In this document: positions 18,790-61,860 of the stretch, piece by piece
Position numbering within the stretch: position 1 is the first letter of the stretch
Layout of the letters: every line of letters begins with the position of its first letter
From: Octopus vulgaris
Lineage: Eukaryota
DNA: 64,000 nt
Direction of reading: 5' to 3'
Assembly (NCBI GenBank): GCA_951406725.2
Contig: OX597822.1
Span: 50,840,001-50,904,000 of the forward strand
Program-made: the position numbers and the translations under genes
Notes under the pieces: model-generated
Told to the model about the DNA's origin: nothing
The model's input: the letters and a program-made list of their open reading frames with translations, nothing else
Database searches by the model: none

Positions 18790-19131
18790 GTAGCCAGCCA
18801 GTAGGTGTCGCTTCCGACAATCTCTGTTCGATGGTTTTATTTACCTAGTTTCGGTGGAATACATCCACTTGTTTTCAATAATAGAAATATTAAAATTACT
18901 AAGTCTCTCTAAAAGAGAACAGCGGCAGCGTTCCCGGAAAATAATAGTTATCGCCATACTAATATGGCATTCTTATAAAAATAAGAATAAAGCTGTCCGC
19001 TTATTAGCTCCATGAGACTTAGTAATTTTAATATTTCTATTATTGAAAACAAGTGGATGTATTCCACCGAAACTAGGTAAATAAAACCATCGAACAGAGA
19101 TTGTCGGAAGCGACACCTACTGGCTGGCTAC

Positions 19132-21902: not shown

Positions 21903-23387
21903 CTAGCAGTATCGCCCGGCGTTGCTCGGGTTGTAAGGGAAATAACTATATAAGCATTTTTAGAGAGTTATAGCCAAAAAGTAGCAAAAAAATGCATTAA
22001 AAATTGAAAAAAAATTAAGGTAAATTTTTCTTTAAATCGTTGACACATCGTAGATATTTTTAGAGAGTTACTTCCCTTATATAAAAGCGAAAAAATGCAT
22101 TAAAATGGAAAAATATGATGGTAATTTTTTTTTAAATCGTAGACTCATCGTAGACGCGCGCTAATACCCAGAAGGGCTCGTTTGTTATTCTGGGTAACTT
22201 TCTGTAAAATTATTAAAATTTTGTTCAAACATCGCTATAGAAAATGGGTTATTAGCTAATATTCAATTGGGTGTACAACAAAATTTTACGATAGAATTTG
22301 TTATTCTGGGTAACTTTCTGTAAAATTATTAAAATTTTGTTCAAACATCGCTATAGAAAATGGGTTATTAGCTAATATTCAATTGGGTATACAACAAAAT
22401 TTTACAATAGAATTTGTTATTCTGGGTAACTTTCTGTAAAATTATTAAAATTTTGTTCAAACATCGCTATAGAAAATGGGTTATTAGCTAATATTCAATT
22501 GGGTATACAACAAAATTTTACGATAGAATTTGTTATTCTGGGTAACTTTCTGTAAAATTATTAAAATTTTGTTCAAACATCGCTATAGAAAATGGGTTAT
22601 TAGCTAATATTCAATTGGGTATACAACAAAATTTTACAATAGAATTTGTTATTCTGGGTAACTTTCTGTAAAATTATTAAAATTTTGTTCAAACATCGCT
22701 ATAGAAAATGGGTTATTAGCTAATATTCAATTGGGTATACAACAAAATTTTACGATAGAATTTGTTATTCTGGGTAACTTTCTGATACCCATAATAATAT
22801 TTATGGCAAAATAGGCCTTAATTTCATTTAAGATTGTGGGAAATAACAAACTATCCTTTCTTTCGGTTTGTTTACGTTTAGCGTAATGATTTCAAATAGG
22901 CTCATTCGAAAAAGTAAATAGAAATAGTCTAAGGCTTTACTCTTCTGGGAAAGTCAGTGGCTTGGTCCAGTTTCTTCAGAAAACTCACCGAAAGAAACAG
23001 TTTTTAAATTTTCACTCCATTCAGGTACCAATTCGTTTTCTTTATCGCTGTCGGATTCACTGTTTTCACTTTAATAGCTGCCAACTTGCAAAACAAAGGA
23101 GGAGAAGGGTGATAGCGTCAGTGAAACAATTCGCTCCCTTTGTGTGTGTGTGCGTTTGCGTGTGGTGTAAACCAGACTAAGAAAAACATTTGACACGCAC
23201 ACCAGAATGTGAGTTTTCTGTAAATTTTGCTTAATTGGAGTTTAAATTTTAAAAACTGGACCTGGCATGACGCGATGCATTGTACTCTTAAAATTGCTAG
23301 GTAAATTGTAATTGAAGAAATCCTATATTGTAGATTTGTATAACTCCCAAAGGGAGGCAGATAAAATCTGCCTTTTATAATAAGAGA
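21903..23387 (-). mobile_element. Complete non-autonomous Helitron (1485 bp)
   Basis: Minus strand starts A|TCTCTTATTATAAAAGG and ends CCCGAGCAACGCCGGG hairpin ... CTAG|T; inserted between A and T with no TSD. Confidence 0.88.
22181..22784. repeat. Tandem array, 116-bp unit x ~5.2, inside the Helitron
   Basis: tttgttattctgggtaactttctg recurs at 22181, 22297, 22413, 22529, 22645, 22761. Confidence 0.97.
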
Positions 23388-44430: not shown

Positions 44431-45335
44431 TATAATAATATAAATAATATATAAATATGTGCATATATACATACATATATGTACATACCTACATATATCT
44501 GTATATATACATGCATATATGGGTACAAGACATCAAAAGAAAGAAAAATGTTGAACACACTGAGAAATGAAAACATAAAAACAAAAACATAGAAAACGAA
44601 CTTCTTTCTAACAACGAAAAAAAAACCCAAACAAACAGAGAAAGGAGACATGCAACATTAAGAATAGCCCCCTTCACCAGTTGTCCCTACTCCGCATTTG
44701 GAAAGCAAGGACAAAACGCGACTTTGTTGAAATAGTCCTTCCCTTAAAGCAAATTAAATAAAATTTGTGATTTTTTTTCGCGGAGGGTTAAATTGTTAAC
44801 AAGAACAATACAGTAAAAACAAACGGTGAGAGCTGTTAAGCTAAGGCGATAGAAAAATTATTATGAACGCTAGGAAAGCGAGCTTATTAGAGGAGACAGG
44901 TATAAGCACTTGTTGCCTTTTGGAAGGAAATGAGCAGAAAGATTGATTCTCTTTCATCACGTGTCATCGACGACAGAGTCAAGGAGGAAGAGGGAGAGAG
45001 AGGGAACGATGAAGAGGAGAGAAGAAGGACAGGGAAGGGTGGGAGAGAAAAACCAGAAAGGATGAAGAACAAGAGAGGGAGATAGATAGACAGAGAAGAG
45101 ATAATAGCGATAGAGAGTAGTAGAGATAGTTTAAGAAGGAGAGAGGGAGAGAGAAAAGGCAGAGAAGAGATAGTAGAGATAGAAAAGTGCGCATCGTAAT
45201 TATTAAGACAAATTTACTTGGAAAAGGATGCGCGGCGTTCGATCATATAATAATATAAATAATATATAAATATATGCATATATACATACATATATGTACA
45301 TACATACATATATATGTATATATACATGCATATAT
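44431..45335 (-). mobile_element. Non-coding ~815-bp-unit element with terminal redundancy; relative of 60.5-61.8 kb
   Basis: ~90-bp direct repeat at 44431 and 45246; minus strand ttattatatgatcgaac...ccaagtaa...aataattacgatgcgcact aligns with 61040-61112. Confidence 0.75.
44668..44720 (-). ncRNA. Decayed non-circularly permuted hammerhead-like motif
   Basis: cgcGTT-ttgtcctt-g-ctttc-CAAA tgcg-gagt-agggacaa-CTGGTGA-agggg; two core substitutions. Confidence 0.45.
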
Positions 45336-56431: not shown

Positions 56432-57515
56432 ATATATAAATATATATATATATATATGTTTGTGTGTGTGCGTGTGTATTATTACAAATTTGTGATTTTA
56501 CCAATAAAACCTCACCTCCTATTTCAGGATAGCCTTATTGTATGGAATACACATAGAAAGTTATATCTAATAAAATAATATAAGCATTTAAAAACCTATA
56601 TAAAATAGAATAACATTATCTTTTTTAATATTTGAAAAAATATATATAACTTACCTGTTATTAGTCTGTGGGGAAAGAAGATATTTTTTATCGAAGCTAC
56701 ACATAATTCTGCGCTGGAGGGGTGTTTATCATACCTATACCTAATACATAAATCCACCAGTGCGTCCTCAGGCTATTTATGTTATTGTTATTGTTATTAA
56801 CGGATCAAAGTTAAAACTAAATATTATAAATCATATTAAATAGAAAAATAAGAATATGAATAAAATATAATAATATTATATAAATATAATAAAAATATAT
56901 CAATTACAAATATATTTTTTTAAATTTCAAAAATTTAAAAAATTTAAAAAAAATTATATACATAAATTAACAACCTGTTTGTACAGTCACAAAATATTAT
57001 TTGAGAAGTTCGAGAAAGGAACAAGAGCGCTGAGGATAATGAAGAAATAAAAAGATATTTTTTCCAATATTCTAACGACTTTTTTCTTAACCCACACGCA
57101 CACGCACACATACACACACACATATGCGTATGTATATACATAAATTTGTATTCTTTCATTTTGTCCTTCTTTCTATCAGCACTTTCACTCTTCCTTCATT
57201 CCAATCTTCATTATTTCGTTCCCCCTCTCTCACATTTCCTGGCCTTCTCTTCAAGCTCACTTTCTCTCCTCTTTCACTTCACTGTGTCTGTTTCATTTTC
57301 CCTCGCCCCTCCTTCATTCTTCTATCCCTCTGCCTCTACCTCCGTTTCTTCTCTCCCGCTGTGACTGGTGTTCGGCCAGGCCTGACCTTTCTTTCTTGGT
57401 TTGACTACCATCAGTGCAAAATCTATATTCCTCTTTGTGCATGTTAAATCACATGTCCCTGCCGTAAGGCTTTACTTCCATACATGCCAGCTAAATTAAA
57501 TTCGTCCTTAGTCGA

Positions 57516-57575
57516 GCAATCTCGAATATAACCAGCCGAAATTGGAAAGATAATCTGGAACTCGACTGAGGATAG
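57516..57575 (+). ncRNA. Non-circularly permuted hammerhead-like motif, family B
   Basis: gcaATC-tcgaat-ataaccagcc-GAAA ttg...actcga-CTGAGGA. Confidence 0.45.
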
Positions 57576-57677
57576 AAAACTCCGACGGACCTGCCCTTAT
57601 TTTCCTTGTATCGTCTGTATGGATATTTTGTTGTTCCTTTTTTGTATCTCAAAACTGTTTAGATGCTTTGCGTTCTT

Positions 57678-59872: not shown

Positions 59873-60460
59873 GGACAGATGATACAAAAAAGGGGACAAC
59901 AAAACATCCAGACAGATGATTTAAAAAACGAAACACGAAAAAGCAAGGACGAGTCATTCTAGGTTTTTGTTTCCTTGGTCGAGTTCTAGATTATCTTTGC
60001 AATTTCGGGTGGTTATACTCGAGATTGCTCTAATCTGGCCAGCCCCAAAGAAAAACTAAGCTAAGAGCACTAGATTCCTTGGATGAAAGCCGCGAATGTT
60101 CCACTACAATCCGTGGAATATCTATATTCCACCCCATGCCTGTCATCTCTTATGTCCCTGCCGTATGGCTTCACTTCCATCGAACTTCATTTAATTCGTA
60201 CTTAGTCAAAAGTCACCTGTTGTTAATTTCCAGTTATTTGTATTTCTATTTCTCCCTGTTTTTCCGTCATTGTTTTCCTATACATTCGCTGCTTTCTTCC
60301 AAGGGATATAGCGCTCTTAGATTAGATTTTCCACGGGACTGGCCAGATTGGAACAATCTCGAGTATAACCTGCCGAAATTACAGAGATAATCTGGAACTC
60401 GACTGAGGAAAGAAAACTCCGAATGTCTTACCCCATTTGTGTATTCTTTCTTTTTTATAT
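59870..60460. mobile_element. Inverted pair of family-B repeats (also at 57480-57675)
   Basis: ~59950-60090 is the diverged reverse complement of ~60291-60430; each contains the permuted HHR-like motif (59972-60028 minus, 60354-60420 plus). Confidence 0.75.
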
Positions 60461-60505: not shown

Positions 60506-60885
60506 ATGCGTTCTAACTTATTTTTCCACCGTCTAGGCCTAAAAAAAAGCCCTTATTGTTGGTTTCCTTGTCCTGTTATTCTTTATTTGTACTGTTTTTT
60601 CTACTGTTTTTTCTTCATTTGTATTGCTTTTACGTCCTGTTCTTGTCACTTGTTTTACCCCTCTGCAAAATAATTTTATTTACTTCCTTTTGCAGGAAGG
60701 ACTGCTTCGGCTGGCCGTGTTCTGCCCTTACCTTCGAAACACGCATTGAATCGAACTGAAAGGGAATTTTCCTTGTATTGTTTGTCATGTACTCTGTTTT
60801 TTCGTGGTTAAAAAAATGTCCGTTTCCTTGTTTGATTTAATGTTTTCGTTTCTCGTTGTTCTACGTTTATTTCTGGTGTCCTGTA

Positions 60886-60964
<79 letters not shown>

Positions 60965-61813
60965 TTGTATATATACATATAGATGTAAGTATGTACATAT
61001 ATGTATATATGCATATGTTTTATTTATTTATTATATTGTTATTATATGACCGAACACACGCGTTGTTTCTCTTCTCCAAGTAAGTTTTTATTTGAATAAT
61101 CATGACCCGCACTCTTATTCTTTACTTGACCTTTCCTCCCTGCCGGTCTGTCTTCCTCTCTACTTGTCTCTCTCCTTCTTATTTTTCACGCTTTCTGGTT
61201 TCTTTTCCTCTCTCTCTCTCTCTTTCTCCTCCTCCTCCTCTGTCTGGCCGTTGACCGGTGTGCTACTAAAACTTTCTTTCAGCTCGTGCTTTCAACAAGC
61301 ATACATCGACTTCTCTGTCTTTCGCAAGCCGCTTTTTCACATGCGTTCTAACTTATTTTTCCACCGTCTAGGCCTAAAAAAGCCCATATTGTTGGTTTCC
61401 TTGTCCTGTTATTCTTTATTTGTACTGTTTTTTCTTCATTTGTATTGCTTTTACGCCCTGTTCTTGTCACTTGTTTTACTCCTCTGCAAAAGAATTTTAT
61501 TTAATTGCTTTTGCAGGAAGGACTACTTCGGCCTGGCCGGGTTCTGCCCTTACCTTTGAAACACTCATTGAGTCGAACCAGGGGCAGCTGATGAAGGGGA
61601 ATTTTCCTTGTATTGTTTGTCCTATACTCTGTTTTTTCGTTGATAAAAAAGTCCGTTTCCTTGTTTGATTTTATGCTTTCCTTTCTCGTTGTGTTCTACG
61701 TTTATTTGTGGTGTCATGTATTCATATATATATGCATGTATATATACATATAGATGTAAGTATGTACATATATGTACGTATATAAGCATATGTTTTATTT
61801 ATTTATTTATTAT

Positions 61814-61817
<4 letters not shown>
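60506..61817 (+). mobile_element. Partial tandem (~1.6 units) of a ~0.82-kb non-coding element, family A
   Basis: atgcgttctaacttatttttccaccgtctaggcct at 60506 and 61341, with ~470 bp of continued similarity; ends in (TA)n. Confidence 0.85.
61538..61599 (+). ncRNA. Non-circularly permuted hammerhead-like motif, family A (partial second copy 60716-60765)
   Basis: GTT-ctgccctt-a-ccttt-GAAAC...aggggcag-CTGATGA-agggg. Confidence 0.55.

Positions 61818-61860
<43 letters not shown>

Follow-up and report, generated by a model that had tools for sequence, protein, structure and literature searches.

The window (the whole 64-kb stretch of DNA that was analysed) holds, at positions 60506–61832 of the plus strand, 1.6 units of a non-coding repeat with a ~782-nt monomer, designated family A and delimited by alignment to a family consensus built from 60 loci. 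Two copies of a predicted hammerhead with a split core lie within it. Hammerhead position numbers follow standard hammerhead numbering. The features, in window positions, are as follows.

60506–61832, plus strand: family A element, with 1.6 non-coding monomers in tandem, truncated at its 5' end and finishing in (TA)n (consensus alignment).
60658–60765, plus strand: hammerhead of copy 1, with perfect V, II and III; a 13-nt deletion takes the end of helix P, stem Ib and CUGA; predicted dead.
60889–61010, plus strand: internal TA-rich tract of the monomer, expanded at this locus (window repeats).
61080–61371, plus strand: possible retained intron, with a GTAAGT donor at 61080, a CTAAC branch-like site at 61348 and an acceptor-like TAG ending at 61371 (from sequence only).
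61479–61599, plus strand: copy 2 split-core hammerhead, every block present; two mismatches each in stem III and helix P; C11.1 is T.
61479–61483, plus strand: 5' strand of helix IV, whose partner at 61595–61599 directly follows A9 (alignment, pairing).
61484–61516, plus strand: hairpin V, with a stem of 8 bp, directly abutting helix IV on one side and G10.1 on the other (a compensatory U-A/C-G change separates subfamilies).
61517–61521, plus strand: G10.1 strand of stem II (IIa, the upstream partner), pairing with 61553–61557 (pairing).
61523–61530, plus strand: 5' strand of helix P, which joins the ends of stems I and II and pairs with 61574–61581 (pairing).
61538–61549, plus strand: block S, comprising a stem III strand, U16.1, U17 (predicted cut after 61543) and a stem I strand.
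61553–61565, plus strand: block G, comprising a stem II strand, GAAA (61558–61561) and a stem III strand.
61582–61599, plus strand: stem I strand, CUGAUGA core (61588–61594) and 3' strand of helix IV.

A segment of ~500 nt is present twice in the window, 821 nt apart. The original prediction had taken this spacing, ~0.82 kb, for the unit length; the spacing stands, and it reflects a TA expansion over the ~782-nt family monomer. The genome (2.8 Gb in 227 contigs) was searched with a 25-nt family A marker, which gave 1013 exact matches versus 0 for its reversed control. On comparison with the consensus, copies wrap round a closed unit of 782 nt to which nothing further is added. Their 3' ends are concentrated at monomer positions 7, 18 and 62–64, beside (TA)n, their 5' ends are variable, and an inverted 5' piece was found in 8 of 30 copies taken in positional order. 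(TA)n flanks both ends of the unit in the window. Truncation at the 5' end, inverted 5' pieces, partial tandems and (TA)n targets make up the insertion pattern of Penelope-like elements (PLEs), and the proposal of a terminally redundant, TA-associated, PLE-type non-autonomous element was thus borne out. Among the ORFs listed, reading frames in the locus were short and of low complexity only. No splice joint for the candidate intron at 61080–61371 was present among the listed joints of four contig sets. The motif TTTTGCAG at 61509–61516 was considered as a splice acceptor and rejected, being explained by hairpin V. Elsewhere in the window, 18846–19075 is a long near-perfect inverted repeat, possibly a MITE (with an Rfam MIR6217 match below the gathering score), and 22181–22784 is a 116-nt tandem repeat of 5.2 copies with 98% matches.

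The fold runs, 5' to 3', through helix IV, hairpin V, stem IIa, helix P, stem III, the UH cleavage site, stem I, a short linker, stem IIb, GAAA, stem III, helix P, stem I, CUGANGA and helix IV. In this predicted fold stems I, II and III cross one another. Helix IV adjoins hairpin V without a gap, as does hairpin V G10.1, and helix P begins one base 3' of IIa and stops at stem I. The RNA chain therefore enters and exits the ribozyme between A9 and G10.1. Pairing and alignment make it very probable that the A9–G10.1 backbone link is replaced by the two flush helices IV and V; these would stack, so that the nick between them keeps A9 beside G10.1. In RNAfold, the minimum-energy structure of an intact copy contains both IV and V, and the family A ribozyme is predicted to be a knotted form competent as a monomer. 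A decoy pairing of IIb with G8-A9-AGG has the same energy as the true stem II (-4.6 kcal/mol), and helix IV (-7.4) competes for those bases.

The blocks follow the order UH, GAAA, CUGAUGA (S-G-C) across family A, and none of the circular orders of hammerhead types I–III (CGS, GSC or SCG) is present. The non-circular C-B-A order described earlier for this locus was therefore seen, and it corresponds to type SGC of Eckert et al. (2023). Type I and type III readings by way of the downstream hairpin were rejected, since no GAAA follows it, as the original prediction had noted for type III. Its expectation that searches for types I–III would miss the motif also held: an Rfam scan gave 188 matches, and the 150 of these that were listed include no hammerhead. 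Other assignments had to be revised. Stem II had been drawn between CCTTY and the AGGGG after the core, which contains two G-U pairs and leaves C11.1 without a partner in all 10 aligned copies; IIb pairs perfectly with the upstream GAAGG (61517–61521). The AGGGG pairs with an upstream CCCCT as the separate helix IV, and the downstream hairpin is no alternative stem II. Stem I, given as 8 bp, is present; a length of 6 bp describes it better, the final two pairs being in competition with helix P.

The core (CUGANGA, GAAA, UH) is present in the family A consensus and in 60 of 73 scorable copies, and core plus stems I–III are intact in 41 of those 73 (95 copies were found). Neither window copy is among them. 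As anticipated, copy 1 has a perfect stem III and has lost the CUGA-bearing strand, to the 13-nt deletion that removes stem Ib and CUGA, and copy 2 has a damaged stem III, with two mismatches. The strict split-fold descriptor gave no match in the window because both copies are damaged. Predicted cuts fall after 60721 (copy 1) and after 61543 (copy 2), in agreement with the positions first proposed.

A genome-wide descriptor search for the C-B-A order, proposed in advance, gave 736 matches to the S-G-C pattern versus 1 in the control. The split-fold descriptor gave 88 distinct matches in 1.31 Mb of loci, mostly selected and fetched for these families, versus 0 in a 51.1-Mb Markov control. Five families (A–E) were distinguished in this genome. 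Family C, ~75% identical to A, is its sister family (1835 exact matches versus 7 in the control) and has a tandem period of 764 nt; family B has only the ribozyme (stem I and core) in common with A; families D and E, both multi-copy, surfaced unselected in flanks by way of the descriptor. Ancestors of family A in which extra bases would restore a direct stem II were rejected: the form with an extra GA had 0 matches, and the eight matches to the form with an extra TGA were a different family, B. The 64-kb window itself holds three different split-hammerhead families, family E lying beside the family A element as follows.

60283–60425, plus strand: neighbouring family E copy with the same split-core hammerhead; core at 60403–60409, predicted cut after 60358; stems II and III decayed.
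59965–60098, minus strand: the ribozyme region of family E once more, in inverted orientation.

A third, partial family E copy covers the ribozyme core at 57514–57585 (plus strand), and a diverged family C copy lies at 44687–44792 (minus strand). At another family E locus (L204) a tandem repeat with a period of 882 nt suggests a further retrozyme-like unit. Four loci (L145–L148) hold diverged relatives of family B whose conserved part is mainly the ribozyme core.

Pairing was scored in ten copies of families A and C. In this set, 10 of 31 pairs changed on both sides, in stems I and III, hairpin V and helix P, and 95.8% of cells pair versus 40–49% with slid partners; the copies come from few related lineages in an alignment chosen by the author, and related sequences can beat the shuffles of the tool. 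Helices II and IV are invariant in these ten copies and show no covariation there. Family D was left out of this count and included in the comparison across families, in which the sequence of every helix differs among the five families and still pairs, and in which the paired sequences of II, IV and V vary across families A–E and five metagenome loci. Stem II is GAAGG/CCTTC in A and C, GAGCA/TGCTC in D, GACACC/GGTGTC in B and GGCTGG/CCAGCC in E; helix IV occurs as CCCCT/AGGGG, GACCCT/AGGGTC, CCA/TGG and TTTCTT/AAGAAA. The family E representative L182 gave no match in the helix comparison, owing to a stem II mismatch. An upstream stem II of 5–6 bp was found in 14 of 14 scored representatives, where a direct stem II would have 0–4 bp. 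The core is kept in all families, with variation at N7 (T, A, G or C; A in subfamily A2) and H17 (A, C and U only). Conservation of the core with covariation in stems I and III, on which the prediction had been staked, was thus found, stem II covarying across families.

Comparisons with published systems draw on the accessible parts of the cited sources. Family B connects the ribozyme with the Naiad clade of PLEs. Two of its copies continue 5' into a degenerate reverse transcriptase (RT) with DKA and CxC motifs, the ribozyme lying ~850 nt behind the RT; the C-terminal RT, DKA motif and CxC linker are those of a Naiad PLE, and an N-terminal GIY-YIG-type domain was found in two of the three best full-length relatives of this RT. 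The 3' ends of the published Naiad_Obim and Naiad_Ovul, given in the supplement of Craig et al. (2021; PMC8557442), also match family B. In that source Naiads are described as lacking canonical hammerheads, carrying 'HHR_core' or 'HHR_half_core' flags only (eight families are flagged 'half core', Naiad_Ovul among them), and this absence is used to suggest that hammerheads may merely parasitise PLEs. Read by eye, 15 of the 54 Naiad consensi in the supplement, from five phyla, show a reverse-order hammerhead; the reading covered 57 of 81 CGAAAC matches, including the whole Naiad file, with some names taken from file order, and the other 37 Naiad consensi were not caught by the CGAAAC string. The split form was seen in seven consensi (Beroe, with a stem I of only 2 bp; three Acropora; one Morbakka; two Octopus), CSG in seven nematode consensi and SGC with a U3-A8 core in one spider consensus. 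Two hemichordate ends did not fit a hammerhead by eye; these 3' ends, from Saccoglossus and Ptychodera (File S5), carry a conserved structured motif of another kind.

The strict descriptor was also applied to 25 partly redundant metagenomic loci with a Naiad-like RT. It gave six matches (four CSG and two split), each lying downstream of the RT in sense orientation, versus 0 in 23.0 Mb of control sequence; the other 19 loci had no strict match, and a type I–III hammerhead was found in none of the 25. Of the 19, 16 were inspected by eye (the remaining three have <160 nt of 3' flank), and five gave near matches (L228, L233, which is truncated, L235, L244 and L248) and L243 a partial one. Rewired hammerheads are a likely explanation of why Naiads were reported to lack one.

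Family A encodes no EN-RT and its tie to Naiads is the shared ribozyme, so the identity of its mobilising enzyme was considered separately. The ribozyme could be active in an element moved by a non-Naiad PLE, or family A could be what remains of the terminal repeat of an autonomous element since lost, without a circular RNA stage of its own. A Naiad-like RT was found in none of the sampled loci of families A, C, D and E, fragments of the GIY-YIG and RT domains of other elements lie in flanks, other PLE types occur in the genome, and cephalopod Naiads are reported to be long inactive (PMC8557442). Against these explanations, copies wrap the closed unit with nothing added, family C has its own tandem period, and both ribozyme type and (TA)n preference agree with Naiads. 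They are accordingly unlikely, and mobilisation of family A by a Naiad enzyme is the probable one. Family A resembles the Naiad clade (PMC8557442) in its (TA)n targets, partial tandems and inverted 5' pieces, and differs from it in being non-coding; an 11-nt family A marker is absent from the supplement files of that source.

The 5' ends of family A were taken from the first 90 listed matches of a downstream 25-mer in positional order, a sample that contains inverted pieces and in which one locus was counted twice, once per orientation. Measured from the predicted cut, 35 ends lay at -2 to +27, 18 further downstream and 37 upstream. Among the 72 copies reaching the site region, 35 end at -2 to +27, versus 1 of 37 in the 30 nt before it (Fisher p = 2.6e-7). 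Only three ends lay at +28 to +57, where RT would first meet structure. In family C, 12 of 30 ends lay at +6 to +31 (four of these being near-identical duplicates and two a single locus) and none from -42 to +5. The simplest reading of the pile-up is run-off of RT at a cleaved RNA end; the distribution points to cleavage in vivo, for which it would be DNA-only evidence, and self-cleavage by the hammerhead is judged highly probable. Because 37 of the 90 copies run through the predicted cut, an uncleaved or re-ligated template is needed for them; they are compatible with circles or uncleaved tandem RNA equally, and a circular RNA stage is suggested only tentatively.

A fold kept as a protein-binding or RT-pausing structure that no longer cleaves could also produce a pile-up, by stalling of RT in the pseudoknot. 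Most ends do lie 4–27 nt inside the site and not exactly at the cut, and hammerhead cleavage was dispensable for insertion of a Poseidon PLE in vitro (Frangieh et al., 2024; PMC11167929), a result that warns against taking cleavage to be required; RNA-seq of another PLE in the same source showed no cleavage in vivo. Stalling is nonetheless improbable here: ends are few where RT would first contact the structure, they cease abruptly at the cut while the fold extends ~65 nt further upstream, and every catalytic base is kept, H17 being limited to A, C and U. Self-cleavage remains the preferred reading. Internal RT initiation, found in another PLE (PMC11167929), fits the fixed internal 3' ends of family A.

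The type-SGC non-circularly permuted hammerhead was described by Eckert et al. (2023; PMC10085705), and the permutation as such was therefore already known. Six permutations are given there, with the A9–G10.1 link assumed obligatory; in the accessible text the permuted RNAs come from metatranscriptomes or metagenomes and none from an animal genome, where family A sits in a genomic retroelement. Family A resembles the SGC and CSG forms in its S-G-C order, its complete set of core bases, its short stem I–stem II linker and its extra helix between stems I and II, a position occupied here by helix P. It differs in that block C of the published forms is unbroken, with at most 1–2 inserted bases at A9/G10.1 before the stem II strand that follows CUGANGA; in family A the block is opened at this point, helices IV and V are present, and the best partner of stem II lies upstream. 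The SGC, CSG and split forms would share one cyclic order and could interconvert by a shift of the opening. A plain type-SGC hammerhead, with stem II formed by the G-run after the core, a PLE-type extra nucleotide at A9/G10.1 and merely accessory upstream helices, is very improbable: a 4-bp direct stem II (G-C/G-U/G-U/G-C) is possible in A, C and D and a 3-bp one in metagenome locus L248, and an extra base at this junction is typical of PLE hammerheads (PMC4209133) and HRIMA-1 oligonucleotides (PMC10085705), but the duplex energy is 0.0 versus -4.6 kcal/mol for the upstream stem, and the direct stem shrinks to 2 bp in B and is absent in E2 and in four of five metagenome examples, where the upstream stem has 6 bp and IV covaries.

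The split fold was further compared with other hammerheads. The pistol-like pseudoknotted hammerhead (PDB 8YDC; Zhan et al., 2024; PMC11300833) likewise has an extra helix and a pseudoknot replacing peripheral contacts round a standard core; its G10.1 directly follows A9 and its block order is circular, neither of which holds for family A. The minimal type I hammerheads in the pLTRs of PLEs (Cervera and de la Pena, 2014; PMC4209133), in which a one-base insertion between A9 and G10.1 is described, share with family A the location in a PLE terminal repeat and the conserved G10.1-C11.1, and are unlike it in their circular order, palindromic minimal stem III and weak monomer activity. No form broken at A9–G10.1 was found in the accessible parts of PMC3088659, PMC13725137 (which mentions hammerhead variants 'containing additional helices'), PMC10162972 or a 2026 zeta-virus preprint. 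The literature covered, largely outside subscription journals, contained no description of a permuted hammerhead in a Naiad or an animal or of an A9–G10.1 break, and no experimental precedent for a hammerhead without this covalent link.

Where the original prediction proposed a candidate new retrozyme class, family A is a new variant among the non-LTR retrozymes, not an unrelated class. Like the non-LTR retrozymes of animals (Li, Clavereau and Pollet, 2026; Cervera and de la Pena, 2020), it consists of non-coding tandem units with one hammerhead each, is dispersed and is PLE-associated, and its unit length is within the 51–972 bp reported for them (Li et al., 2026). Those elements are defined by type I hammerheads, often dimer-dependent, and family A has no type I hammerhead; the descriptors of Li et al. 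(2026, bioRxiv), type I only in the accessible text, would miss its form. The locus is best read, with a probability of about 0.8, as a decayed copy of a multi-copy non-coding repeat with a predicted split-core hammerhead, likely copied into (TA)n by the RT/endonuclease of a Naiad-clade PLE. Under the proposed life cycle, tandem copies would be transcribed and the ribozyme would cut once per unit, after GUU. Reverse transcription would begin at fixed TA-rich positions ~280–330 nt 3' of the cut; RT running off the cleaved 5' end would leave short copies, and RT passing the site, on a template left uncleaved or re-ligated into a circle, would leave copies of more than one unit, such as that in the window. 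The Naiad-clade RT/endonuclease would act on family A in trans at (TA)n sites, and autonomous Naiads would have a ribozyme of this class close to the 3' end.

A wider proposal is put forward with somewhat less assurance than the Naiad mobilisation of family A: that permuted hammerheads reside in genomes mainly in Naiads and their non-autonomous satellites, across five animal phyla or more, and cut the element RNA in vivo, so that self-cleavage would be general to PLEs and the core would tolerate a break between A9 and G10.1. If true, this would resolve the puzzle of Naiads, which are dominant in many invertebrate genomes and reportedly without canonical hammerheads. Non-circular hammerheads, so far almost only from anonymous metatranscriptome contigs, would gain a genomic host class, and a connectivity beyond the six permutations of Eckert et al. 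would bear on ribozyme structure and engineering.

Sequences of other PLEs were also encountered in the flanks of the sampled loci. In those of L016, L090 and L094 there are fragments of ORFs similar to the RT or GIY-YIG domains of other PLEs. Minimal type I hammerheads were seen by eye in other repeats upstream of a family B copy (L066 flank) and in the downstream flank of L068; both are of the ordinary PLE form, with the core, an extra A, a 4-bp stem II and a palindromic stem III.
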